The notes below the pieces were generated by a model. That model saw only the letters and a list, made by a program, of their open reading frames with translations. It did not search any database and was not told where the DNA came from. A stretch of 11,163 bases of DNA from a virus. This document shows, piece by piece, positions 1 through 11,163 of the stretch. The stretch lies in UHGV virus genome UHGV-1347585; one strand, given 5' to 3'. The position numbers and the translations under genes are program-made. Position 1 is the stretch's first letter. The number at the start of each line of letters is the position of its first letter.

Positions 1-72
1 AAGCCGATTGAATATTGAGCAGTAGAAAATATCTGGATTGACAGTATTACAAGGGATTGGAGAACGTCAGAA

Positions 73-102
73 GAGGTATTTTGGCGGAAGATCACAGGAG
101 TC
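73..102. repeat. Distal att direct repeat; contains a duplicated 21-nt selC 3' end fragment
   Basis: gaggtattttggcggaagatcacaggagtc at 73..102 matches 11101..11130 at 29 of 30 positions. Bases 82..102 are the reverse complement of the tRNA-Sec 3' end (gactcctgtgatcttccgcca). Confidence 0.85.
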
Positions 103-230
103 AAAATTGCCATATAACCACTTGATTCAAATCGTTTATATTTTTCTATTCTAATTCATTTATACACTTCCTTATACATATAATATCTATCGATTAATTG
201 TTACACGTATCTTCACGCACGTTAACTCAG

Positions 231-532
231 GAAAAAAATTTTTTTTCGGAAGAACTGTTCACACTGTTCACCTTTCTGTTTTTTCCTTTTATTTCAGTTG
301 GATAGGTGGTGAATAATGGGTGAAGGGTGAACATTCGATTCTTCACCTCCGGCATTCTGCCGGTGTGACTTGTGCAGGGGATTAATCCTCCGCACTGAAA
401 TCACACCGGAAGAAAAAAGTTTTTTTTGATTTGATTGTTCACACTGTTCACCTTTCGTTTTTCTCTTTTAATTTCAGTGTGATAACGGGTGAACATACGG
501 TGAAGGGTGAACAGTGGATTGTTCACCTTCGG
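231..532. repeat. crr-like cis replication region: two ~120-bp direct repeats carrying TGTTCACC-type iterons
   Basis: Units at about 231..352 and 409..532 are near-identical with a 180-bp period (tgttcacactgttcacctttc at 256..276 and 436..456). Each holds several GGTGAACA/TGTTCACC octamers in both orientations. The position just downstream of alpha matches P4 crr. Confidence 0.8.
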
Positions 533-544
533 GGGATTCAGGGA

Positions 545-570
545 TAAAAAAAGACCGGCAGATGCCGGTC
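545..570 (-). terminator. Rho-independent terminator downstream of alpha
   Basis: Inverted repeat gaccggc/gccggtc (553..559 and 564..570) with a 4-nt loop. On the minus strand it is followed by a run of U (plus-strand A run at 545..552). It lies 17 bp past the alpha stop codon. Confidence 0.65.
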
Positions 571-586
571 AGATGAGTCATGAGGG

Positions 587-2920
587 TCAGACTGTTGCAG
601 GGTCGTCACATTTTGGCAGCCAGTCGCCGTAGCTTTCCTCTTTCAGCGTCAGGTTGGTCTGTATCCCCTGTTTGGTATGGCGCTTCTCGTAATTCAGTCC
701 GTATTCCTTCAGCATCACCGGCAGCCCCAGCCCGAACATTTTCAGACTGAGTACGTTCCGGTAGCCGTTTGCCTCCATGTAGGCCAGATAGGCGTGATAG
801 AGGTATTTACGGTAATTACGCGGGATGATACTGGCGTTCCCCATATACATGCCGCTGGTCTGCGGCAGGGTTTCCAGATAGCCGATAAAATCAAACGTCG
901 GGTCGGCATCCCGTTTGATGTTCAGCGCCTCGTCTGAGTTCTGCTGGGACTGAAGCAGTGACCGGGCGAGCATCGGGTCGCTGAACTTCTGCATCAGGTG
1001 ACGCACGATGACCGCCAGCTCGCGGGTGATTTTGTCCTTAAGCTGCGGGTCGCGCTCCTGCGGGGCTATCTGTTCCGGGAAGTGAATAATCACCCGCCGG
1101 CGTGACACGCCGCCGCTGCGGTCGGTGAAGCGCATCGGGTTATTGTTCACGGCCAGAATCACCGCCGGGATGTGCGTGGAGTACGCATCCCGGTATTTCG
1201 GGTCAACGGACACCGCATCGCCGCCGGTGATGGCCTTGAGTCCGGCTCCGTCGCCGCTCCATTTTTCCTGGTCCGGCAGGCGTATCAGTGAGAAGCCAGT
1301 TAACGCGGCACGTTCACGCGGGGATTCCAGCGTCTCAATGGTGGCCGATGTGGCGTTATCCTCCCCGGCCAGCAGGGTGGCTATTTCGGCCATGATACTT
1401 TTGCCGCTGCCGCCGGGACCGGTCACCTCCAGAAAGAGCTGCCAGTCGTAGCGGTTTGCCAGCACCATAAACAGTGCGGCCAGAATCACGTCGCGTTTTT
1501 CCGCACGGCCACCGGCGGCACGGTCAAGCCAGCGCCAGAACGCGGGGGCGTGGGTTTCCAGCGTTTCCCCTTCCACCGGCGGGGTGAAATCCACATCGCA
1601 CAGGGTGCGCATCCAGTGTGACGGACTGTGCGGGTGGAACGTGCCGTTCTGCGTGTCGAGCACGCCGTTACGAAAGCCAATCAGGCGGCGGGAGGGGGCT
1701 TCCTGCTGCGGAATAATCAGCTTCAGGGTGTCCACCACGGAGGCCACCTTCCCGGAGGAGAACGGCGCGCGCAGACGCTGAAACAGCCCGGCCACATCCC
1801 GGGCAAAGTCCTGTGGCGGCAGCACCTTCCAGACACCATTTTCATAGCGGGACAGAAGCTGGCCGTTGGCATCGACCGCGAGCGCCTCGCCGTAATGCTC
1901 ATAGATACGCATGGCCTTTTCGCTGGTACTCATGGCGGAAAACTCCGCTTCGCTCATGGTGTCGAACGGGCTTTCAGCCGGTGGCCGGATGGCATCATAA
2001 ATGGCCTTACGGGTGGCTTCCCCGCCGTACTGCGTGAAGGCATCATTCCAGTCACCGAAGACCGGCGGCAGGGCAACAACACCTTCACACGCATCTGCGG
2101 CTGCGGCGGCTTTTTTCTGGCCGTCACCGCTGAGGTCACGGTCAGCAGCAAGGACAATCTGACAGGCCGGATGCTTCTGCCGGGCAAGGCTGGCCAGAGA
2201 AAGGAGGTTCACGGAAGAAAGCGCCACCATCACCGTTTCACCGGTCAGGTGATGTACGGTAAGTGCGGTCGCGTATCCCTCCGCTATCCACAGACGTTTT
2301 CCGGCCTGATTCTGTCCTTCAAGGATGTGACAGGTGCCCCTGACCTGTCCGCCTTTCAGGGTGCGCTTACGGCCGTCAGCACTGATTAACTGAAGGTTAA
2401 CCAGTTCGCCGCTGTCGTCATACAGTGGCACCACAAGGTCACCGGCACGCCAGCTCACGCCACCGGCTCTGTGTGTGCCGGTCAGCATCCGGCATTCCCG
2501 GCCGGGAAAGCCCTTGCGGGTCAGGTAGGCGTTACCGGTTCCGGGACGGGTTTTCGCCATCAGGGTTTGTGCCAGTGCGGCGGCGTTCTTCCGGGCGGCT
2601 TCTGTTTCAGCACCGGCGGCGGCCGTCACTGCCGGGTCAGCCGGGGGCAGGCAGCCGGTCACGGCAGCCACCTTTGCGGCCGCGTCGGACGGGGAAACAC
2701 CAAACACCTTTTCAACCAGTTTCAGGCCGTCACCGGCACCACACTGATTGCAGTACCAGGTGCCGCGCCCCTCCCTGTCATCAAAACGGAAGCGGTCACT
2801 TCCGCCACAGACCGGACAGGGCTGATGACGGTTTTTCAGCACCTGAATCCCCAGCGCCGGGAGAATACGCGGCCAGTGGCCGAGCGCATGGCTGACGGTG
2901 GCGGTTACGTTCATTTTCAT
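587..2920 (-). CDS. alpha: P4 alpha-type bifunctional primase-helicase (zinc-finger primase, TOPRIM, SF3-type helicase)
   Basis: 777-aa ORF, the length I recall for P4 alpha. N-terminal CPVCGG...YCNQCG zinc-binding motif, TOPRIM-like WIAEGYATA, Walker A GPGGSGKS. AAGGAG Shine-Dalgarno 9 nt upstream of the ATG at 2920. Iteron regions (crr, ori) are present in cis. Confidence 0.93.
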   Translation of the reverse strand: MKMNVTATVSHALGHWPRILPALGIQVLKNRHQPCPVCGGSDRFRFDDREGRGTWYCNQCGAGDGLKLVEKVFGVSPSDAAAKVAAVTGCLPPADPAVTAAAGAETEAARKNAAALAQTLMAKTRPGTGNAYLTRKGFPGRECRMLTGTHRAGGVSWRAGDLVVPLYDDSGELVNLQLISADGRKRTLKGGQVRGTCHILEGQNQAGKRLWIAEGYATALTVHHLTGETVMVALSSVNLLSLASLARQKHPACQIVLAADRDLSGDGQKKAAAAADACEGVVALPPVFGDWNDAFTQYGGEATRKAIYDAIRPPAESPFDTMSEAEFSAMSTSEKAMRIYEHYGEALAVDANGQLLSRYENGVWKVLPPQDFARDVAGLFQRLRAPFSSGKVASVVDTLKLIIPQQEAPSRRLIGFRNGVLDTQNGTFHPHSPSHWMRTLCDVDFTPPVEGETLETHAPAFWRWLDRAAGGRAEKRDVILAALFMVLANRYDWQLFLEVTGPGGSGKSIMAEIATLLAGEDNATSATIETLESPRERAALTGFSLIRLPDQEKWSGDGAGLKAITGGDAVSVDPKYRDAYSTHIPAVILAVNNNPMRFTDRSGGVSRRRVIIHFPEQIAPQERDPQLKDKITRELAVIVRHLMQKFSDPMLARSLLQSQQNSDEALNIKRDADPTFDFIGYLETLPQTSGMYMGNASIIPRNYRKYLYHAYLAYMEANGYRNVLSLKMFGLGLPVMLKEYGLNYEKRHTKQGIQTNLTLKEESYGDWLPKCDDPATV

Positions 2921-2934
2921 GGTGTTGTTCTCCT

Positions 2935-3255
2935 TCAGTGCAGTACCGGCGCTTTTATGTGACGGGCACAGAGTTCATCCATCACAACCAGCCCGAGAAA
3001 GGACAGCGACGGCGCGGCCTTCAGGGGGCCGGATTCCATTAAATCTTCCAGCAGGGCACAGGCTATCTGACGCCCTTTTTCCTCACCGTGCTGGCGCAGA
3101 TAAAAGCCCTCCAGCTCAGCGGCGATGGCCGCCTCCAGTGATTCAAGGGTGAGATGCGGGTAGCGGTGCTGACGTTCGCACACGGTCAGCCAGGCACAGG
3201 CGACAGCGCGACGGTAAAGGGCTGCGCGTAAGACGGGCGGTAAGGGTGTTTTCAT
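2935..3255 (-). CDS. Hypothetical protein, 106 aa, in the P4 left operon between orf151 and alpha
   Basis: ORF with a GGAGG Shine-Dalgarno 7 nt upstream of the ATG at 3255. Sits immediately upstream of alpha in the same orientation. No recognisable motif. Confidence 0.6.
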
Positions 3256-3390
3256 TTGCTTTCCTCCCTGTGACAGATGACTGCATTCCGTGCCGGTTGC
3301 ATTAACTGATAAGGCATATCTGCGTCTCCTGAAGACGTGCGTATCCCTGCGCGAATACGCACATTTAATTTTTCGGGTGTCGTTTTTTAA

Positions 3391-3846
3391 TTACAGATAA
3401 TTGCGGTAACTGTTATCCGGGGTGGTTTCCGGGTCAGGCTCCGTGCGGGGAATTTCCCGCCATTCCCGCGCCACCGGTGCCGCCCGGCTGACCGGAACAG
3501 GGTCCTGCGGGTAAATATCCAGATATTTCTCCCGCCATTTCTGTAATTCCGGGTCTCCGGCCATTTCTTTCAGTACCGCATGCCGGTTTACGGGGCTGCG
3601 TTTGAACAGGTCAGGACGGTCACAGGTAAATTCCCGCAGAAAACGCCCCAGCGGGATGTCTGTGGTGCGCCCGTCGGCGAGGATACGCACAAGGATACTG
3701 AATTTACGGCGGTACGGGTTCCAGACAATTTCCGGGCAGCGGTACGGCATTTCCCACGGAATACCGTCTTCCAGAATGCCGACCACGGCCACATCGGGAA
3801 AACCGGCAGAACGGTAAATCTCACCGGGCTGGGGAAAATCAAACAT
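3391..3846 (-). CDS. P4 orf151-like protein of unknown function
   Basis: 151-aa ORF at the position of P4 orf151 in the left operon. Its ATG overlaps the stop of the upstream ORF (ATGTTTGA), suggesting translational coupling. Confidence 0.7.
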   Translation of the reverse strand: MFDFPQPGEIYRSAGFPDVAVVGILEDGIPWEMPYRCPEIVWNPYRRKFSILVRILADGRTTDIPLGRFLREFTCDRPDLFKRSPVNRHAVLKEMAGDPELQKWREKYLDIYPQDPVPVSRAAPVAREWREIPRTEPDPETTPDNSYRNYL

Positions 3847-4126
3847 GCGTCCTGTCTCCCCGGTCTTTCTGCTGGGCGAGAAAATCGCGGCACAGGCCTT
3901 TGGCTTTCAGCTCATTCAGCACAAAATCAATATCTTCATTCAGGTAGCTGAAAATATGCGGAATATAGAGCTGATGCAGGCCGGAGAGTTCACGGTGAAT
4001 CAAATCACCCCCAACAAACTGGGATACGGCGCTGGCGCGGTTGAGCTTATGGTAAGCCTCAATGCTGAGGTGTTCACGGGCGTCATGACGCGCTGAGACG
4101 GTCTGAGGGGCTTTTTTATTACGCAC
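3839..4126 (-). CDS. Small protein, 95 aa, at the position of P4 epsilon (helper derepression); GTG start
   Basis: The in-frame part of the 177-aa ORF has no internal ATG, but a GTG at 4126 sits 6 nt after a GGAGG Shine-Dalgarno (4133..4137). The 95-aa product is immediately upstream of and coupled to orf151. The epsilon assignment is by position only. Confidence 0.5.
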
Positions 4127-4316
4127 GGGACACCTCCACAACCGGCAGACGGGCAGCAAGGGAGAGCACATAGTCACGGACAAGGGAACGGCGGGCGCTG
4201 CGTTCATCACCGGCGACGGTGCGAAGCATACAGATACGGGGATGACGGTCTGCGCGACGGACAGCCGCAAACACAAAGACAAATTCAGGGTGTGAGGGGG
4301 TAAGGGTTGTAGCCAT
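4119..4316 (-). CDS. Small hypothetical protein, 65 aa, immunity-region ORF with RBS embedded in the seqC-like element
   Basis: ATG at 4316 preceded by a strong AAGGAGG Shine-Dalgarno (4325..4331) with 8-nt spacing. It is the C-terminal portion of the 199-aa track ORF. Function unknown. Confidence 0.45.
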
Positions 4317-4373
4317 GATGGCAGCCTCCTTGAAGTAACAGTTACAGCTACCACTAGAGTTCCTACGCTCATG

Positions 4374-4452
4374 GGTGGTAGCCCGGACGGGGGTAGGAAT
4401 ACCGGCCTTCAAGGAAACCGGCCAGCCCGAAGGCTGCCCCGCCCGGACCACC
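4374..4452 (-). ncRNA. Candidate P4 CI-like immunity RNA containing the seqB-like element
   Basis: Minus-strand transcript with 5' GGUGGU and 3' ACCACC able to form a closing stem. Contains a cagcc-UUCG-ggctg tetraloop hairpin and a seqB-like segment (plus 4393..4414) complementary to the repeated elements at 4328..4368 (seqC-like) and 4548..4576 (seqA-like). Boundaries are approximate. Confidence 0.4.
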
Positions 4453-4604
4453 ATTATCTGACAGAGGCTACGGTTTAAAAACCACAGCCAGAAAAACAGG
4501 TGTGCCGAAGCAACGACGTAAAAAAAGACGCATGGCGCGTCATATGTCGCCTTGAAGTAACTCGGGTTCCTACGCCCGGCTGCCGATTTTGCGGCAGCGG
4601 AAAA

Positions 4605-4634
4605 ACTATATCCGCAAATGCCGGAAAAAGGCAA
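4605..4634 (-). promoter_or_regulatory. Candidate sigma70 promoter (P_LE-like) driving the immunity/left operon
   Basis: Minus-strand TTGCCT (4634..4629), 18-nt spacer, TATAGT (4610..4605). Located between vis and the seqA-like element. Confidence 0.45.
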
Positions 4635-4669
4635 GCCAGAAAAAGGGAGTTTTTGCAGAGCGGGCATCA

Positions 4670-4936
4670 TCATGCGTCGTACCCCCGTTTGCGTACGGCA
4701 ATGCGCCCGGCCATCCATGCGGTGACTTCAGAGTGCAGCCAGGCCACATTTTTACCGCCAAGACTCACCTGCGGCGGAAATTCCCCCTTACGGATAAGTT
4801 CATAGATGGTCGAGCGTGACAGGCCGCACAGGTGCATCACTTCCGGCAGACGTAAAAAACGCTCCTGCGTGATGTCCGGCAGCGGCATCAGTGGCGTCAC
4901 AGGGGCGGGAGACGGGGAAGAAAAAACAGCTTGCAT
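4670..4936 (-). CDS. vis: AlpA/Vis-family small DNA-binding regulator/excisionase
   Basis: 88-aa ORF with an AlpA-type helix-turn-helix core (FLRLPEV...[17 protein letters not shown]...W). GAGG Shine-Dalgarno 7 nt upstream of the ATG. Position downstream of the leftward late promoter matches P4 vis (orf88). Confidence 0.75.
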
Positions 4937-5058
4937 CGGGCTACCTCGTTAATGTCCATACAGCACCGGATAAGTCCGTCCGGCTTCGGGTAGCGCTTTA
5001 TTTTGTGAATATTTTTGGCAGACGCAACAGGGGGAATTTGTTCCGGCAACCTTACAAT

Positions 5059-5076
5059 GGCTGTGTGTTTTTTATC
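5059..5076. promoter_or_regulatory. TGT-N12-ACA dyad: Delta/Ogr activator box of the leftward late promoter (PLL-like)
   Basis: tgttccggcaaccttaca is an exact TGT-N12-ACA element about 120 bp upstream of the vis start (which is on the minus strand). Confidence 0.55.
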
Positions 5077-5099
5077 CATCCGGACTGGAAGGGTCTCAA

Positions 5100-5320
5100 A
5101 GGGTTCTGAAGGACCTGGAATTTTTTATAGTGAAATGCAAATTATTTTTTCTTATTTATTTCAGTTAATTAATAAAAATAAACAGTAATAAACAGCATAA
5201 AAAGCCCATCAACGGGTGAACAGTGGTGAACAGACGGTGAACAGTCATTACTGCGATTGTTCACCCTTTAACTTACTGTATTACTTATCTTTTTTATTAA
5301 GGTGAACAGAGGTGAACAGT
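5100..5320. repeat. ori-like region: AT-rich tract followed by a cluster of GGTGAACA iterons
   Basis: 5100..5210 is strongly AT-rich. 5214..5320 holds five direct GGTGAACAG copies (three tandem, then two) plus an inverted TGTTCACC. The same octamer occurs in the crr-like repeats about 4.7 kb away. Confidence 0.75.
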
Positions 5321-5398
5321 AAAATATAAAAAAAACAAACAGTAAGCCGGTTTTTCCTGCGACCTTTTCCTGGCTTGCCGGTCTGAGGATGAGTCTCC

Positions 5399-5416
5399 TG
5401 TGTCAGGGCTGGCACA
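5399..5416. promoter_or_regulatory. TGT-N12-ACA dyad: Delta/Ogr activator box of the sid promoter (Psid-like)
   Basis: tgtgtcagggctggcaca is an exact TGT-N12-ACA element about 80 bp upstream of the sid ATG, with a weak -10-like cacaat at 5451..5456. Confidence 0.6.
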
Positions 5417-5488
5417 TCTGCAATGCGTCGTGTTGTTGTCCGGTGTACGTCACAATTTTCTTAACCTGAAGTGACGAGGAGCCGGAAA

Positions 5489-6223
5489 ATGTCTGACAAC
5501 ACCATCCCTGAATATCTGCAACCCGCGCTGGCACAACTGGAAAAGGCCAGAGCCGCCCATCTTGAGAACGCCCGCCTGATGGATGAGACCGTCACGGCCA
5601 TTGAACGGGCAGAGCAGGAAAAAAATGCGCTGGCGCAGGCCGACGGAAACGACGCTGACGACTGGCGCACGGCCTTTCGTGCAGCCGGTGGTGTCCTGAG
5701 CGACGAGCTGAAACAGCGCCACATTGAGCGCGTGGCACGCCGGGAGCTGGTACAGGAATATGACAATCTGGCCGTGGTGCTGAATTTCGAACGTGAACGC
5801 CTGAAAGGGACGTGTGACAGCACGGCCACCGCCTACCGGAAGGCACATCATCACCTGCTGAGTCTGTATGCAGAGCATGAGCTGGAACACGCCCTGAATG
5901 AAACCTGTGAGGCGCTTGTCCGGGCAATGCATCTGAGCATCCTGGTACAGGAAAATCCGCTCGCCAACACCACCGGCCATCAGGGCTACGTCGCGCCGGA
6001 AAAGGCTGTCATGCAGCAGGTGAAATCATCGCTGGAACAGAAAATAAAACAGATGCAAATCAGCCTCACCGGCGAGCCGGTTATCCGGCTGACCGGACTG
6101 TCAGCGGCAACACTCCCGCACATGGATTATGAGGTGGCAGGCACACCGGCACAGCGCAAGGTGTGGCAGGACAAAATAGACCAGCAGGGAGCAGAGCTTA
6201 AGGCCAGAGGACTGCTGTCATGA
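5489..6223 (+). CDS. sid: Sid-like external scaffold / capsid size determination protein
   Basis: The track ORF starts at an upstream GTG (5471). The ATG at 5489 has a GAGGAG Shine-Dalgarno 7 nt upstream and gives 244 aa, the length I recall for P4 Sid. First gene of a sid-delta-psu operon; its stop overlaps the delta start (ATGA). Confidence 0.8.
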   Translation: MSDNTIPEYLQPALAQLEKARAAHLENARLMDETVTAIERAEQEKNALAQADGNDADDWRTAFRAAGGVLSDELKQRHIERVARRELVQEYDNLAVVLNFERERLKGTCDSTATAYRKAHHHLLSLYAEHELEHALNETCEALVRAMHLSILVQENPLANTTGHQGYVAPEKAVMQQVKSSLEQKIKQMQISLTGEPVIRLTGLSAATLPHMDYEVAGTPAQRKVWQDKIDQQGAELKARGLLS

Positions 6224-6720
6224 TTTACTGCCCGTCGTGTGGACATGTTGCTCACACCCGTCGCGCACATTTCATGGACGATGGCACCAAGATAATGATT
6301 GCACAGTGCCGGAATATTTATTGCTCTGCGACATTTGAAGCGAGTGAAAGCTTTTTCTCTGACTGTAAAGATTCAGGAATGGAATACATTTCAGGCAAAC
6401 AGAGATACCGCGATTCACTGACGTCAGCCTCCGGCAGTATGAAACGCCAGAAAAGAATGCTTGTTACCGGATATTGTTGTCGGAGATGTAAAGGCCTTGC
6501 ACTGTCAAGAACATCGCGGCGTCTGTCTCAGGAAGTCACCGAGCGTTTTTATGTGTGCACGGATCCGGGCTGTGGTCTGGTGTTTAAAACGCTTCAGACC
6601 ATCAACCGCTTCATTGTCCGCCCGGTCACGCCGGACGAACTGGCAGAAAGCCTGCATGAAAAACAGGAACTGCCGCCAGTACGGTTAAAAACACAATCAT
6701 ATTCGCTGCGTCTGGAATGA
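6220..6720 (+). CDS. delta: Delta-like late transcription activator: tandem Ogr-type zinc-finger domains
   Basis: 166 aa. The N-terminus MIYCPSCGHVAHTRR...CRNIYCSATF is a clear Ogr-family C4 zinc-finger signature. A second copy of the motif (YCCRRCKG...CTDPGCGLVF) matches the duplicated-Ogr architecture of P4 Delta. Confidence 0.9.
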   Translation: MIYCPSCGHVAHTRRAHFMDDGTKIMIAQCRNIYCSATFEASESFFSDCKDSGMEYISGKQRYRDSLTSASGSMKRQKRMLVTGYCCRRCKGLALSRTSRRLSQEVTERFYVCTDPGCGLVFKTLQTINRFIVRPVTPDELAESLHEKQELPPVRLKTQSYSLRLE

Positions 6721-6793
6721 GGGCTGCCGGTTAACCCCGGCCGTCGCCGCACACCGTATTTTTATTCTTCAGCATGATGAGAAAGAGATAACG

Positions 6794-7366
6794 ATGGAAA
6801 GCACAGCCTTACAGCAGGCCTTTGACACCTGTCAGAATAACAAAGCAGCATGGCTGCAACGCAAAAATGAGCTGGCAGCGGCCGAACAGGAATATCTGCG
6901 GCTTCTGTCAGGAGAAGGCAGAAACGTCAGCCGCCTGGACGAATTACGCAATATTATCGAAGTCAGAAAATGGCAGGTGAATCAGGCCGCCGGTCGTTAT
7001 ATTCGTTCGCATGAAGCCGTTCAGCACATCAGCATCCGCGACCGGCTGAATGATTTTATGCAGCAGCACGGCACAGCACTGGCGGCGGCACTGGCACCGG
7101 AGCTGATGGGCTACAGTGAGCTGACGGCCATTGCCCGAAACTGTGCCATACAGCGTGCCACAGATGCCCTGCGTGAAGCCCTTCTGTCCTGGCTTGCGAA
7201 GGGGGAAAAAATTAATTATTCCGCACAGGATAGCGACATTTTAACGACCATCGGATTCAGGCCTGACGCGGCTTCGATGGATGACAGCCGTGAAAAATTC
7301 ACCCCTGCGCAGAACATGATTTTTTCGCGTAAAAGTGCGCAACTGGCATCACATCAGTCTGTGTAA
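6794..7366 (+). CDS. psu: Psu-like polarity suppression / capsid decoration protein
   Basis: 190-aa ORF, the length I recall for P4 Psu, directly downstream of delta and followed by a terminator. Assignment is by length and synteny. Confidence 0.75.
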   Translation: MESTALQQAFDTCQNNKAAWLQRKNELAAAEQEYLRLLSGEGRNVSRLDELRNIIEVRKWQVNQAAGRYIRSHEAVQHISIRDRLNDFMQQHGTALAAALAPELMGYSELTAIARNCAIQRATDALREALLSWLAKGEKINYSAQDSDILTTIGFRPDAASMDDSREKFTPAQNMIFSRKSAQLASHQSV

Positions 7367-7402
7367 AACTCCCCGAAAATCCGCCCGTTTTTACTGAAAA
7401 AA

Positions 7403-7430
7403 GCCATGCATCGATAAGGTGCATGGCTTT
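7403..7430 (+). terminator. Rho-independent terminator ending the sid-delta-psu operon
   Basis: Stem gccatgca/tgcatggc (7403..7410 and 7420..7427) with a 9-nt loop, followed by ttt and a further T-rich stretch. Confidence 0.6.
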
Positions 7431-7603
7431 GCATGCGTTTTCCTGCCTCATTTTCTGCAAACCGCGCCATTCCCGGCGCGGCCTGAGCGTGTCAGTGAAA
7501 CTGCATTAAAACCGCCCCGCAAAGCGGGCGGGCGTGGCGGGGAGAGCATTGCGCGCAAGCTGGGTAATTTTAGTTTCGTACATTTCTTGGTGGCAGGTAT
7601 ACT

Positions 7604-9718
7604 TTGACCGCATTTGCCGGGCAACATGTATATTGTATGAAGGATTTTAAAGATATAGTGTTTGCATTAGAAATGAATAAACCAGATGAGCAGATATCAG
7701 CATTAATTGCAAAAAAGGACATTACCATGCAGATAATAAGTGGCGAAACTAATATAAATGATGTTGGCATAAAAAAGAGATTTAAAAATTGCGAGCCATT
7801 TCAGTGTATTGTTGAGTTAGCATGGAATGGATTTGATGCCAAAGCTCGGAATGTCACTATTGAGGTGCGTAGAACTGATTTAGGCGGCCTGTCATCGGTT
7901 TATATTCTTGATGATGGTGATGGTATAGATTTTAATCACTTTGATTTGAACTTTAATAGATTTGATGATTCACTAAAAAAAGATAATATTGAATTACATG
8001 GCTCACAAGGAAGAGGAAGGCTTGCATTTCATAAGCTCAGCCGTCAAGCTATATGGTTTACTAAATATAACGATATAAATGCTAAAATAGAAATTGATGA
8101 TGCTGATCTTAAAAATTATCAAGCTTATATTAATATTCCGTATCAAGAGCAGCATTCAACATTAATCGGACAAAAAAGTGGCACATGTGTCATGTTGAAT
8201 CATTTTCATAATGATTTACCAAGTGATAATGAAATAATAAAAAGATTACAGAGTGAGTTTTGCTGTCACTTAGCACTGAACGAGCAGATAACGTTATCTT
8301 ATAATGGGGTTGTTATAACGGCACCAGAACATGATTCTCACTCATTAGAAAAAGAATTTGATGGAAGTTCATTTTCAATCAAGGCTCTCCGATGGGATGA
8401 AAAACCCTCTAAAGAAAGATCGTATGTATATTTGGTAAATTCGCAGGGTAAAAAAGTCCACGAAGTTCCAAGTAAATTTAATCAGAAAAAAGATTTCTAC
8501 CTTTCTATATTTGTCAGTTCTGACTGGGCTGATAACTTTAGTAATAAAGGCGATGATATATTTTCAGATGCTAAGTATAATGCTGACTCAAAAGTTTGGA
8601 AAGATGTCATAAAATTTGTTTGGGGATTATCAAAAAAGATATATGATGATTTCCTTCAAAAGAAAATCGACGAAACTTTAGAGCGTTATCAACAAGAGGG
8701 AGTATTCCCTTCTTATAGCGAATATTCAGATCCTAAATATGCTGAGTGGCGCTTGAATAATATCAAGGCTATCGTTCGTGATATATATATAGCCGAGCCA
8801 GCCATGCTCGATAATTTGAATACAAAACAAAGAAAGGTTTTTGTAAGGCTATTGGATAAACTATCTTCATCAAATAATAATGAGGATTTATTTAATATAC
8901 TTGAAAGCGTTTTAGATTTGAGTAAAGAGGGTTTGTCAAAACTTTCTAATCAATTAAGAATTACAAAACTTGATAATATAATTAGCGCGATTGAAGAACT
9001 ACAAAAAAGAAGGCTTGTAGTGGACAAGCTTCGTTATTTAATGGATCATCATTATAAGGAAATAAGAGAGACTCCAGATCTTCAAAAAATAATTGAAAAC
9101 AACACATGGTTGTTCGGTGAACGCTATGAAACTATCGGGGCTGAGGAAGATACTTTTACCAAAATAGCATTAGAATTAAGGAATAGTGTTAAACATATCA
9201 ACGATATTGATGAAGATGATGTTGAGAATGAGGCAGAATTAGCTGGTTCAAAACGGCAGACAGATCTATTTTTAGCCAGAAAGTACCCAGCCCTTGATTC
9301 CAATGGTAACCCATATTACAAATGCATTATCATTGAGATAAAAAGACCAAGTATTTCATTAAATATAAAACATCTAAGACAGCTTGATGATTATGCGGCA
9401 ATAATTCAAAGACATCCGGGGTTTAGTAGTCAAAATTTGCATTTTGAGCTCATACTCATAGGTCGTAAAATATCTAAAGATAGTTTCGAAATAGAAAGTA
9501 GATTGAATTCACATATACAAAAAGGTGATATGGGATTAGTTGGGGATGATCCTAGGATGAAGCGCTACGTTAAAAACTGGTATACCATTTTTGATGGTTT
9601 CGAACTCACTAATAGATTTATGCTTGATAAATTGAAATTAGAAAGAGATAGCTTAGAACTTGGTGAAATATGTTCGAAAGAAATTGTTTCAGAATTACAA
9701 GGTAACTTAAGTAAATAA
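7604..9718 (+). CDS. Cargo protein: N-terminal GHKL/Bergerat-fold ATPase fused to a C-terminal PD-(D/E)xK-like nuclease motif; candidate single-gene anti-phage defence protein
   Basis: 704-aa ORF from a TTG; internal ATGs at 7637, 7673 and 7727, the last with an AAGGA Shine-Dalgarno, are plausible true starts. N-box ELAWNGFDA, G1 box DDGDGI and G2 box GSQGRG occur in canonical order and spacing. The C-terminus has TDLF...IIEIKR (D...ExK). The gene is visibly AT-rich (roughly one third GC by eye) against a GC-richer backbone and occupies the psu-int slot. Confidence 0.85.
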   Translation: MTAFAGQHVYCMKDFKDIVFALEMNKPDEQISALIAKKDITMQIISGETNINDVGIKKRFKNCEPFQCIVELAWNGFDAKARNVTIEVRRTDLGGLSSVYILDDGDGIDFNHFDLNFNRFDDSLKKDNIELHGSQGRGRLAFHKLSRQAIWFTKYNDINAKIEIDDADLKNYQAYINIPYQEQHSTLIGQKSGTCVMLNHFHNDLPSDNEIIKRLQSEFCCHLALNEQITLSYNGVVITAPEHDSHSLEKEFDGSSFSIKALRWDEKPSKERSYVYLVNSQGKKVHEVPSKFNQKKDFYLSIFVSSDWADNFSNKGDDIFSDAKYNADSKVWKDVIKFVWGLSKKIYDDFLQKKIDETLERYQQEGVFPSYSEYSDPKYAEWRLNNIKAIVRDIYIAEPAMLDNLNTKQRKVFVRLLDKLSSSNNNEDLFNILESVLDLSKEGLSKLSNQLRITKLDNIISAIEELQKRRLVVDKLRYLMDHHYKEIRETPDLQKIIENNTWLFGERYETIGAEEDTFTKIALELRNSVKHINDIDEDDVENEAELAGSKRQTDLFLARKYPALDSNGNPYYKCIIIEIKRPSISLNIKHLRQLDDYAAIIQRHPGFSSQNLHFELILIGRKISKDSFEIESRLNSHIQKGDMGLVGDDPRMKRYVKNWYTIFDGFELTNRFMLDKLKLERDSLELGEICSKEIVSELQGNLSK

Positions 9719-9721
9719 TAT

Positions 9722-9755
9722 GCATATTGCATCGGTGAAATACTGATGCAATATG
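9722..9755. terminator. Hairpin between the convergent cargo gene and int; possible bidirectional terminator
   Basis: 11-bp perfect stem catattgcatc/gatgcaatatg with an 11-nt loop, flanked by AT-rich sequence, lying between the two convergent stop codons (9718 and 9770). Confidence 0.5.
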
Positions 9756-9769
9756 TTAGCATATAATAA

Positions 9770-10948
9770 TTATATTATGGCTGTTGTTAATAGGAAATCA
9801 CTATACCATTGCAACATTATTTTTCGATTTTCAATATATTGTGCATGATTGTATGTTCCACGAATGCTGTTCTTATCTACATGTGCAAGCTGCATCTCAA
9901 TCCACGCACTTTCAAATCCTTGTTCATGTAAGATCGTTGACATTGTGTGTCTGAATCCGTGACCTGTCGCACGTCCTTTGTAGCCCAGTAATTCAATTAC
10001 CTGCGACACACTTTCTTTAGAGATCGGTTTACTACGATTATTTCTACCAATAAAAATGTAGGGATAATGGCCGGTAATAGGTTTGAGCTGCTTAAATAGC
10101 TCAACTACCTGAGTAGATAAAGGAACAATGTGAGGCCTACGCATTTTCATCCGTTCTGCTGGTATTTCCCATATACTTTTCTCAAGGTCAACCTCATCCC
10201 ATGTAGCAAAGCGCATCTCTTGGGTTCGTACACCGGTCAGCATGACGATTTTTGTCGCATTCTTAGTGATAATGCTGCCGGTATACGCTTCAAGATCCCG
10301 AATAAAATGAGGTAACTCTTCAGCGGATAAAAATGGATGATGCTTTTGCTTCGGAACGGCCAAAGCAATAGCCAAATCAGGAGCAGGATTGTATTCTGCG
10401 CGGCCAGTTATAATTGCATAGCGATAGACCTCGCCGCATCTTTGGCGCACTTTTCTGGTCTTCTCTAGCGCTCCACGCTTCTCTATTCGCCGCAATACTT
10501 CAAGCAGTTCTAACGGTTTGATTTCACTGATAGGGCGTTTACCAATGAACGGGAACACATCTTGTTCAAATGTCTTAATGATTTCTTCGCGATAGGCCAC
10601 TGTCCAGCGGTCAGCTTTGTTGGTGTGCCATTCTCGACATATGGCTTCGAATGAATTCTCTGTTGAGAGTTGCTGTGCCAGCTTTTGGGCTTTACGTTCT
10701 TCTACTGGGTCTATGCCGTTTGCTACCTGCTTACGAGCTGTATCGCGTTTCTCACGTGCTTCTGCGAGGCTCACAAGGTCGTAGCTGCCAAATGACATTA
10801 GCCGTGCTTTACCGGCAAAACGAAAGCGGAAGCGCCAGCCCTTTGAGCCGTCTGGATTGATGAGTAATGACAGGCCTTGTCCATCGTTCAATGTGTAGGG
10901 CTTGTCTTGGGGCTTTGCTCGTTTAATTTGAATGTCTGTGAGTGGCAT
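9770..10948 (-). CDS. int: P4-family tyrosine integrase (site-specific recombinase), selC-specific
   Basis: 392 aa. N-terminus with the P4-integrase-like arm-binding signature (KPYTLNDGQGLSLLINPDGSKGWRFRFRF). C-terminal catalytic motifs HGFRHT and RGTYNHAQY contain the tyrosine nucleophile. Lies next to the selC 3' end in the same orientation. Confidence 0.95.
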   Translation of the reverse strand: MPLTDIQIKRAKPQDKPYTLNDGQGLSLLINPDGSKGWRFRFRFAGKARLMSFGSYDLVSLAEAREKRDTARKQVANGIDPVEERKAQKLAQQLSTENSFEAICREWHTNKADRWTVAYREEIIKTFEQDVFPFIGKRPISEIKPLELLEVLRRIEKRGALEKTRKVRQRCGEVYRYAIITGRAEYNPAPDLAIALAVPKQKHHPFLSAEELPHFIRDLEAYTGSIITKNATKIVMLTGVRTQEMRFATWDEVDLEKSIWEIPAERMKMRRPHIVPLSTQVVELFKQLKPITGHYPYIFIGRNNRSKPISKESVSQVIELLGYKGRATGHGFRHTMSTILHEQGFESAWIEMQLAHVDKNSIRGTYNHAQYIENRKIMLQWYSDFLLTTAII

Positions 10949-11100
10949 ATGTATAAGTCAAAAATATGTATAAAAGATCTATACACATCACTATACATAT
11001 TTTTCACGGATTCAGGGAGAACTTGTCGGACGGTTACGGATGAGTGATTTACTATGTATACTGAAAATAAAGGATTTTTAGACGTTCTCGGATAGCGGCG

Positions 11101-11130
11101 GAGGAATTTTGGCGGAAGATCACAGGAGTC
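11101..11130. repeat. Proximal att direct repeat overlapping the 3' end of selC
   Basis: gaggaattttggcggaagatcacaggagtc matches 73..102 with one mismatch. It covers the last 21 nt of the tRNA and 9 nt downstream of its CCA end. Confidence 0.85.
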
Positions 11131-11163
11131 GAACCTGCCCGGGACCGCTGGCGGCCCCAACTG
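11110..11163 (-). tRNA. selC: tRNA-Sec (selC), 3' portion only; 5' part lies beyond the window edge
   Basis: The reverse complement of 11110..11163 reads CAGTTGGGGCCGCCAGCGGTCCCGGGCAGGTTCGACTCCTGTGATCTTCCGCCA. That is the T-arm (GGTTCGACTCC), long acceptor stem and CCA end of enterobacterial tRNA-Sec as I recall it. Confidence 0.85.

Follow-up and report, generated by a model that had tools for sequence, protein, structure and literature searches.

The P4-like element phiR73 lies at the selenocystyl-tRNA locus; P2 infection leads to its packaging, and it inserts again at that locus (Sun, Inouye & Inouye 1991; Inouye et al. 1991). P4-like satellites at selC instead of leuX have thus been a known kind since the description of phiR73 in 1991. 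In addition, the slot between psu and int of P4-like satellites has been described as a hotspot for defence genes (Rousset et al. 2022; de Sousa & Rocha 2022).

Here we analyze a window (the whole stretch of DNA under study, 11,163 nt) that comes from the chromosome of E. coli. Our main reading, to which we assign a probability of about 0.9, is that it contains a phiR73-type P4-family satellite, complete and about 11.0 kb long, put into selC by its own tyrosine integrase. As in other elements of this type, the insertion is in the 3' end of selC and the tRNA gene is regenerated. An earlier note on this DNA had proposed a P4-like satellite carrying a defence cargo and inserted at selC rather than at a leucine tRNA gene. 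The insertion at selC is confirmed, and P4 itself does use a leucine tRNA gene (the P4 attP core consists of the last 20 nt of leuX). However, any reading of the use of selC as a departure from what is known has to be abandoned, since both phiR73 and a sibling element in O157:H7 already sit there. The swapping of integrases and cargo genes in P4-like satellites has also been described at scale. As a discovery this locus carries little weight; its value is that of a clean worked example, with the boundaries mapped to the base and the empty site known.

Boundaries of the element at selC

The element is 11,028 bp long and extends between attR (positions 73-102, minus strand) and attL (11101-11130, minus strand). 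The chromosomal sequence on the side of selC that faces setC (1-72, unstranded) matches the selC-setC intergenic region of K-12 and runs on into a RhuM-family pseudogene fragment (yicT in K-12), the end of which is placed at window position 3 by the PGAP annotation. At the opposite side, the 3' 54 nt of selC occupy positions 11110-11163 on the minus strand, and the gene extends past the window to 11204. ARAGORN reported no tRNA, as the window ends at 11163, within selC; in an identical RefSeq record, tRNA-Sec is annotated at the equivalent of 11110-11204, minus strand. The earlier note had made its reading depend on this tRNA being selC once seen in full and on the repeat coinciding with the junction to an empty site. 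The full sequence is indeed that of selC, and the regenerated gene is identical to K-12 selC at 95 of 95 positions. The repeat also coincides with the junction: an attB site rebuilt from window positions 1-102 and 11131-11163 matches unoccupied selC loci of many E. coli genomes over 135 of 135 positions, the site being uninterrupted in 2565 of 5426 genomes.

The two direct repeats, 73-102 and 11101-11130, are identical at 29 of 30 positions, with a sole mismatch between T at 77 and A at 11105. The exact core comprises 25 nt (78-102 and 11106-11130), and the number of 25-mers repeated by chance in a window of such size is expected to be about 5.5e-8. Within attR, the final 21 nt of selC, now displaced, span positions 82-102, and the 9 nt natively found downstream of the gene, contiguous with it in empty sites, span 73-81. 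Within attL, the element supplies the selC 3' end with its CCA (11110-11130), and its arm begins with 9 nt (11101-11109) that agree with the native chromosomal flank at 8 of 9 positions. Thus the coordinates of the 30-bp repeat given earlier and its division into 21 nt of selC and 9 nt of downstream sequence held up. The identity block runs from the T-loop to the tRNA 3' end, with TTC-GACTCC...CCA in this element and TTC-GAGTCC...CCA in P4 and leuX.

By analogy with P4, the 21 nt that end selC would be present in the element as well, so that insertion would regenerate the tRNA gene at attL and displace the original selC 3' end to attR. The predicted attP junction is ...GCGGCGGAGGAATTTTGGCGGAAGATCACAGGAGTCAAAATTGCCATATAACC... 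and the predicted attB junction is ...CAGAAGAGGTATTTTGGCGGAAGATCACAGGAGTCGAACCTGCC....

Both att arms contain short repeated motifs. The arm on the far side from int, which separates the core from crr (103-232, unstranded), is nearly identical among sibling elements and has TATACA at positions 161 and 173, which are candidate arm-type Int sites. The integrase-proximal arm (10949-11100, unstranded) overlaps the int upstream region and has TATACA or TGTATA at 10950, 10967, 10980, 10992 and 11055. Altogether, 7 of the 11 such motifs in the window are within the two arms.

Similarity beyond the tRNA end

Comparison with other occupied sites indicates that the 9 nt beyond the CCA were not duplicated through integration, and instead reflect a likeness of the integrase-side arm of the element to the chromosomal flank. 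Sibling elements share only 1-2 nt with the host flank past the CCA. Repeat lengths were compared within E. coli only, because no second att copy was found in the loci of other genera within 10-kb flanks with up to 4 mismatches allowed. Position 77 is chromosomal and is T or C depending on the host, while position 11105 is element-borne and is A in both contexts, from which we infer that strand exchange probably takes place on the selC side of the mismatch position.

The second of these contexts is provided by strain A25, in which the same element (99.6% identical) occurs at selC in front of the LEE island. In this copy, the attR flank differs from that of the window by C in place of T, and attL keeps A. 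Its position before LEE suggests that the A25 and window copies are separate integrations, though in principle the A25 copy could have arrived by homologous recombination instead of by Int. A satellite stacked before the LEE pathogenicity island also shows selC accumulating tandem elements.

The post-CCA bases are non-random over 22 distinct integrase-side arms adjoining selC, with A at +1 in 19 of 22, T at +5 in 16, C at +6 in 17, and T at +8 and C at +9 in all 22. The chromosomal flank follows the same base pattern, and a chance match at 8 of 9 positions has a p value of about 1e-4. These figures favour an explanation in which the functional att site takes in all 30 bp of the repeat: Int or an accessory protein would read past the tRNA end into the 9 nt after the CCA, and attP would be under selection to agree with the flank of the host there. 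We nevertheless consider it unlikely, since siblings with 94-95% identical Int use the same site despite a flank match of 1-2 nt, the host flank varies at +2 to +5 in occupied and empty sites alike, P4 has no identity past the CCA, and the post-CCA region is at least 14 nt away from the likely overlap. A smaller possibility is that the invariant T+8 and C+9 just past the selC CCA would be a functional part of the att site or of selC 3'-end formation.

Shared ancestry could also account for the likeness, and we put this slightly above even odds. Either the 'empty' E. coli flank would be what an older selC island with a related integrase-side arm left behind, or attP would have once taken up host flank through imprecise excision; the flank sequence at issue as relic or native is AAATGCCTCTCC. 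The presence of the RhuM-family pseudogene fragment in the flank agrees with such an origin. In addition, the E. coli flank alleles ATTAGCCTCTTCTGAC and ATTTGCCTCTTCTGAC agree at 14 of 16 positions with Citrobacter arms (loci L022 and L080) next to integrases about 70% identical to that of the element, and the LEE-side and K-12 flanks are alike for 15 nt after the CCA and divergent beyond. However, the similarity is weak over 60 nt (z of 1.5-2.7 against shuffles), with clear likeness limited to the first 16 nt, the K-12 flank has no blastn or tblastx match to Citrobacter-type islands, and these comparisons fit the relic and capture directions equally. As a sub-hypothesis, the E. coli flank may have originated as a relic of a Citrobacter-type island.

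Integrase, P4 backbone and variable slot

Integration by the element's own enzyme is supported by the int gene (9770-10948, minus strand), which encodes a P4-type tyrosine integrase of 392 aa, classified as selC-specific. [quoted passage not shown] The protein has the same Pfam domain set as P4 Int (Arm-DNA-bind_3, Phage_int_M and Phage_integrase). A comparison with P4 Int, which the earlier note had called for, gave 38% identity over 405 columns covering the conserved VR..E.RFA.WDE, GHGFR and R..Y blocks, and places it among P4-type tyrosine recombinases.

The proposed selC specificity of this P4-family integrase agrees with the setting of its relatives. In other genera, tRNA-Sec adjoins all 17 sampled loci with Int of at least 69% identity, with the same spacing, while none of the loci with Int of at most 66% identity are at tRNA-Sec, and Arg, Thr, Gly or Ser tRNAs are found instead. 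This clade therefore has a sharp specificity limit, with selC used at 69% identity and above. P4 genes come next in most loci with Int of at least 81% identity. A phage collection contained no close relative of the int DNA, the best protein matches there being about 48% identical, and the name phiR73 was absent from the Int homologues found. Taken together with the backbone described below, the sequence comparisons point to a swap of the integrase module (int and both att arms) by which a backbone otherwise identical to P4 came to target selC instead of leuX.

The P4-like backbone proposed earlier is borne out by 97.4% identity to P4 over positions 233-7530. None of the P4 core genes and RNAs is disrupted, and the core set defined by de Sousa & Rocha (int, psu, delta, sid, alpA/vis, epsilon and alpha) is present in full (7/7) and in P4 order. 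The gene order, int-(cargo)-cos-psu-delta-sid-...-vis-CI RNA-epsilon-orf151-cnr-alpha-crr, is that of the P4 prophage. The cis-required replication region crr (233-532, plus strand) has two 120-bp direct repeats 180 bp apart and matches the P4 crr annotation. On the minus strand, it is followed by the alpha primase-helicase (587-2920, 777 aa; homologous to P4 alpha, with Pfam domains Zn_Ribbon_Prim, Toprim_3, D5_N, DUF5906 and Pox_D5), the copy-number control gene orf106/cnr (2935-3255; DUF5375, from Pfam and P4 annotation), orf151 (3391-3846, from P4 homology) and epsilon, encoding the helper derepression protein (3839-4126, from annotation and P4 homology). The CI immunity RNA of the C4 antisense RNA family (4371-4458, minus strand) has its target and isrK-type leader at 4521-4611, and the Rfam matches here are RF01695 with 86.1 bits, RF01394 with 73.4 and RF03163 with 49.6. 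Next is vis (4670-4936, minus strand), an AlpA-family excisionase/regulator of 88 aa (Phage_AlpA, 7e-21) corresponding to P4 ORF88. The plus-strand genes include the capsid size determination gene sid (5489-6223, from P4 homology), the Ogr/Delta zinc-finger transactivator gene delta (6220-6720, from Pfam) and psu for polarity suppression and capsid decoration (6794-7366; Pfam Psu, 2e-88). The P4 homology ends exactly at the P4 right end, by a cos-like cohesive-end site, GGCGTGGCGGGGAGAGCAT (7531-7549, plus strand), which is identical to the P4 left end at 16 of 19 positions and has conserved flanking sequence. It is a putative P2/P4-type cos site for helper-dependent packaging.

Mobilisation would need a helper of the P2/186 type, and the element encodes epsilon, delta, sid and psu in addition to the cos-like site. 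A search of viral, metagenome and genome contigs with a degenerate attP-junction pattern gave no match to excised or packaged forms. The two IMG/VR matches to the attR pattern proved to be integrated prophages. Among the copies 100% identical to the element, most (fifteen) share one set of coordinates in the chromosome and could be clonal. Such copies, and an attP junction found nowhere searched, would fit a fixed cryptic remnant that is immobile and spreads by clonal descent and homologous recombination of the selC region. We regard this as improbable, since no damage is seen in the core genes, the two att sites, cos or crr, the element occurs in two different left-flank contexts, its 11.0 kb fits P4-size packaging, and phiR73, which is of the same kind, is experimentally mobile. 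A complete satellite integrated by its own Int thus remains our preferred reading.

The slot between psu and int is allelic among the sibling E. coli elements at selC, the Int proteins of which are 93.6-95.3% identical to that of the window; the siblings carry RT+SLATT, GapS4 or dCTP deaminase in the same slot. In the window, the cargo is a single plus-strand gene (7637-9718) for a MORC-like GHKL ATPase (HATPase_c_3, 2e-15) with a C-terminal PD-(D/E)xK/QxxxY nuclease motif. Its true start is likely at 7727, giving 663 aa. The nuclease-motif residues D513, E537-x-K539 and Q552-xxx-Y556 are invariant in 38 homologues. In the structural model, the N-terminal 380 residues have pLDDT of about 80-90 and the C-terminal part is of low confidence. 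The best PDB matches of the model in Foldseek were MORC3, MORC4 and MORC2 (E about 1e-10), followed by Hsp90, GyrB and MutL, while a PDB sequence search returned nothing significant. The modelled protein appears to combine the GHKL Bergerat fold with an S5-like transducer, as in MORC and paraMORC proteins. No match to curated defence families was obtained, and no Pfam match to DUF4263 even at E of 10 or below. An identity as Shedu (SduA) was rejected, the PADLOC SduA match (E 0.0016, 15.7 bits) being outside the nuclease motif.

The published table of hotspot loci lists an 'HATPase_c_3' cargo, WP_089563614, with WP_047615349 (Rousset et al. 2022; de Sousa & Rocha 2022). Judging from the accession neighbourhood and the Pfam label, WP_089563614 is probably the same protein as the cargo. 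In the examined portion of the hotspot paper's text, no mention of testing for the HATPase_c_3 cargo was found. The earlier description of the gene as defence cargo agrees with its place in the psu-int hotspot slot, while the defence function is deduced only from position and domains; it would most likely serve the lysogen as an anti-phage gene. Tentatively, and at somewhat less than even odds, we propose that the cargo (7727-9718), with its MORC-like GHKL ATPase joined to a PD-(D/E)xK/QxxxY nuclease, would form a new anti-phage system that works on its own and is carried through Enterobacterales and Burkholderiales by P4-like satellites targeting selC and by other small islands. It is the sole part of the element that could lead to something new.

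Comparison with described satellites

As in the psu-int defence hotspot, the cargo of this element is located between psu/cos and int. The P4-like prophage beside LEE at selC in O157:H7, called 933L in the literature, has the same site, the same P4 gene set and an Int 93.6% identical to that of the window, and differs in its cargo (an anti-phage dCTP deaminase) and in a shorter exact att repeat with the flank.

P4 shares the gene order, the backbone from crr to cos (97.4% identical), and an att core that runs from the same T-loop position of a tRNA gene to the CCA. In contrast, its Int is only 38% identical and targets leuX instead of selC, its arm motif is GGGGGCAT instead of TATACA, its repeat identity ends at the CCA, and its gop-beta-cII cargo is replaced in our element. 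The size of P4 is 11,624 bp, compared to 11,028 bp here.

By its description, phiR73 is the same in being P4-like, in residing in selC, in having its own integrase and in being mobilised by P2. It is reported to be 12.7 kb long, with 29-bp direct repeats and an integrase about 40% identical to P4 Int; the corresponding values of the present element (11.0 kb, 25-30 bp and 38%) fit these figures. The difference is in the variable slot, which contains retron Ec73 in phiR73 and the GHKL ATPase-nuclease gene here.

Junctions at selC and the attachment repeat

The window is a segment of Escherichia coli chromosome, matched over its full length at 100% identity in at least 15 complete RefSeq genomes (e.g. 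NZ_AP021935.1, 72156-83318). In that genome, setC, yicL, and nlpA lie beyond the left end of the window, and selC, yicJ, and yicI beyond the right end. Its yicI gene (alpha-xylosidase), just beyond selC and yicJ and about 2.3 kb past the right end of the window, is interrupted by an ISEcp1-blaCTX-M-14 unit (17480-19163 in L001, the locus from this genome). The window contains the 3' part of selC (11110-11163, minus strand), and the gene is cut by the window end, so ARAGORN did not call it there. The RefSeq record annotates tRNA-Sec at the window-equivalent positions 11110-11204 on the minus strand, and the regenerated gene is identical to K-12 selC at 95 of 95 positions.

In K-12, the DNA downstream of selC is continuous with the sequence of window positions 1-81. 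We joined window positions 1-102 to 11131-11163 as a predicted attB of 135 nt, which is present at 135/135 in unoccupied sites of many E. coli genomes, some of them sharing an isolate series with carriers; an uninterrupted selC site was found in 2565 of 5426 complete E. coli genomes. The earlier note had named two outcomes that would count against its reading, a repeat lying away from the junction with the empty site and a right-end tRNA other than selC. Since the empty site matches, with the repeat at the junction, and the tRNA is selC, neither was observed. About 135 nt resembling E. coli selC and its flank (96-98% identity) also appear in two Campylobacter phage records, MG065686.1 and MG065691.1 (matches H31 and H32), and could be contamination or acquired host DNA.

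The repeat finder reported the pair 73-111 and 11101-11139. At the level of single bases, 78-102 and 11106-11130 are exactly the same over 25 nt (about 5.5e-8 such chance 25-mers are expected for this window size), while 73-102 (attR) and 11101-11130 (attL) agree at 29 of 30 positions, the sole mismatch being T at 77 versus A at 11105. The 30-bp repeat described earlier does combine the final 21 nt of selC with the 9 nt that follow it, but it is not perfect, as the mismatch falls within these 9 nt. The shared tRNA block is 21 nt long, starting in the T-loop (TTC|GACT) and ending at CCA. P4 has an annotated 20-bp attP core, GAGTCCGGCCTTCGGCACCA, made up of the final 20 nt of leuX, from TTC|GAGT in the T-loop to CCA, in agreement with the earlier note, according to which P4 itself uses a leucine tRNA gene. 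Because the P4 core begins at the same T-loop position, we infer that strand exchange would take place near the T-loop end of the shared block. In contrast to the present repeat, the identity in P4 stops at CCA, and P4 and leuX share no bases beyond it. The direct repeats of other selC islands in the literature range from 16 to 24 bp.

Origin of the bases past the CCA

That integration did not create the 9 nt past the CCA is shown by three observations. First, sibling elements at selC in other E. coli, with integrases 94-95% identical, have only 1-2 nt in common with the host flank past the CCA, and their exact repeats measure 22-23 nt. Second, the mismatch position fits a host origin of 73-81 and an element origin of 11101-11109: at attR it is T in the window and C in both K-12 and strain A25 (NZ_CP028750.1), a second carrier, while at attL it is A in both carriers. 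Third, the 9 nt form the start of the integrase-side arm, a stretch partly kept across the clade. Counting from the first base after CCA, T at +8 and C at +9 are invariant in 22 of 22 distinct arms (window 11092-11109 and selC-adjoining integrase loci L004-L023, L041, and L080), with A at +1 in 19, T at +5 in 16, and C at +6 in 17. The segment from +5 to +13, TCCTCCGCC in the window, has a direct-repeat likeness to the selC acceptor-stem strand TCTTCCGCC. It is possible, though unlikely, that the segment past the CCA has a function.

The chromosomal flank follows the same post-CCA base pattern as the integrase-side arms. Under the sub-hypothesis that we favor, the 'empty' flank may be what is left of an older island, or else an attP may once have captured host flank. 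The flank (window 1-81; 2317-2560 in the K-12 locus L002) is more than plain intergenic DNA, since it carries a RhuM-family pseudogene fragment, yicT. Its alleles at +1 to +5 in different E. coli strains (AAATG, AAATA, ATTAG, and ATTTG) reappear in arms beside Citrobacter integrases of about 70% identity, agreeing at 14 of the first 16 nt. However, the signal is weak over 60 nt, and the K-12 flank had no blast match to the Citrobacter islands.

Integrase, backbone, and cargo

The integrase (9770-10948, minus strand; 392 aa) contains the domains Arm-DNA-bind_3, Phage_int_M, and Phage_integrase, of the same type as in P4 Int, with which it shares 38% identity and aligned catalytic blocks. Clustering at 90% places it in a group of 2979 members, drawn from E. 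coli, Citrobacter, Salmonella, Enterobacter, and Klebsiella, with thousands more relatives beyond. Among the 5426 E. coli genomes, megablast found integrase-family DNA in 347 (18 at ≥99% and 281 at 80-90% identity). To survey specificity, one genome per species was scanned with the integrase protein and ARAGORN was run on the loci. In 17 of 17 loci with at least 69% identity (Serratia, Kluyvera, Mangrovibacter, Phytobacter, Yersinia, Yokenella, Providencia, Citrobacter, and Entomohabitans), tRNA-Sec lies upstream of int at the same spacing, whereas loci at or below 66% have tRNA-Arg(CCT), Thr(CGT), Gly(CCC), Ser(TGA), or Arg(TCT) in its place. The split between selC and other tRNAs is sharp, and the proposal of a P4-family integrase with selC specificity is upheld. 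P4 genes come next at most loci whose integrase is at least 81% identical. In a Kluyvera MAG contig (L012), an integrase with 90% identity has two tRNA-Sec genes upstream of it (9289-9381 and 9744-9838), which are 455 nt apart.

Of the window's 11 TATACA/TGTATA motifs, the two att arms hold seven, which are candidate arm-type sites; five of the seven are in the int upstream region. In contrast, arms beside the approximately 70%-identical selC integrases of L022, L023, and L080 (~9940-9990) carry GGGGGCAT repeats like the P4 arm-type sites (3940-3965 in the P4 sequence, L003); thus the type of arm site does not track the target tRNA.

The backbone (233-7530) is 97.4% identical to P4, stopping exactly at the P4 right cohesive end, and its close resemblance to P4 is borne out by intact parts: the genes alpha, orf106/cnr, orf151, epsilon, vis, sid, delta, and psu; crr with its two 120-bp repeats; the CI immunity RNA and target region (Rfam C4 at 86 bits, isrK, c4-a1b1); and a cos-like site, GGCGTGGCGGGGAGAGCAT (7531-7549), identical to P4 cos at 16 of 19 positions. 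The starts of the two att copies are separated by 11,028 bp, compared with a P4 length of 11,624 bp. The element departs from P4 in the att-site module, which comprises int, the two arms, and the cargo lying between cos and int. Judged by sequence, the element has all the features of a P4-like satellite and is predicted to work like P4. The RefSeq 'ash family protein' pseudogene (4341-4718) covers the Rfam CI/C4 RNA and isrK-type leader, and is probably an annotation carry-over of the old P4 'cI' reading frame. In the sibling carrying GapS4 (L005, 8294-8866), psu is annotated with an internal stop; hence not all P4-like elements at selC are intact.

The cargo (7637-9718) is the sole gene between cos and int. 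Its start is uncertain within 7604-7727: the ORF listing gives 704 aa (TTG start) and RefSeq 693 aa, while most homologues have 663 aa, which points to 7727. The protein contains an HATPase_c_3 domain. With a mean pLDDT of 72, the AlphaFold model is of moderate quality as a whole and of good quality over the N-terminal 380 residues, for which Foldseek placed the MORC3, MORC4, and MORC2 ATPase modules closest, with Hsp90, GyrB, and MutL behind. In the C-terminal part, D513, E537-x-K539, and Q552-xxx-Y556 are invariant across 38 aligned homologues, the most distant at 48% identity; these residues form a PD-(D/E)xK nuclease signature together with a QxxxY motif of the RecB type. No match was found to curated defense families (PADLOC SduA scored 15.7 bits; DUF4263 gave no match) or, by sequence search, to the PDB, and public names are generic. 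A Salmonella homologue (58%) stands alone in a small island with integrases. The P4 hotspot loci listed by Rousset et al. include an 'HATPase_c_3' cargo (WP_089563614, once with WP_047615349), whose accession numbers neighbor those of this element's proteins. Considering its position and domains, a defense role for the cargo is a reasonable inference.

Related elements and mobility at selC

At the protein level, sibling integrases at selC are 93.6-95.3% identical, and sibling cargo in the same slot comprises an RT and SLATT pair, GapS4a/b, or an anti-phage dCTP deaminase (in O157:H7). Strain A25 (L093, 1-6100) has the same element at selC, 99.6% identical over window positions 67-11163, with the espF end of a LEE island (type III secretion) as its left neighbor in place of the setC-side flank. 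The LEE-side and K-12 flanks have 15 nt in common after CCA and diverge thereafter. Because one element has two left contexts, the A25 and window copies point to separate integrations, and the tandem array in A25 (selC, satellite, LEE) means that selC accumulates tandem elements. A search for the excised form by its attP-junction pattern gave no match in viral, metagenome, and genome contig collections. A direct precedent is the retronphage phiR73 (Sun et al. 1991), located at the selenocystyl-tRNA locus, for which infectious particles after P2 infection and subsequent re-integration at that locus have been described.

The earlier reading of this element is right, yet the arrangement is already known; published work covers both the swapping of integrases between P4-like satellites and the turnover of their psu-int cargo. 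The element belongs to the selC-integrating branch typified by phiR73, which is reportedly 12.7 kb long, flanked by 29-bp direct repeats, and equipped with an integrase about 40% identical to that of P4.
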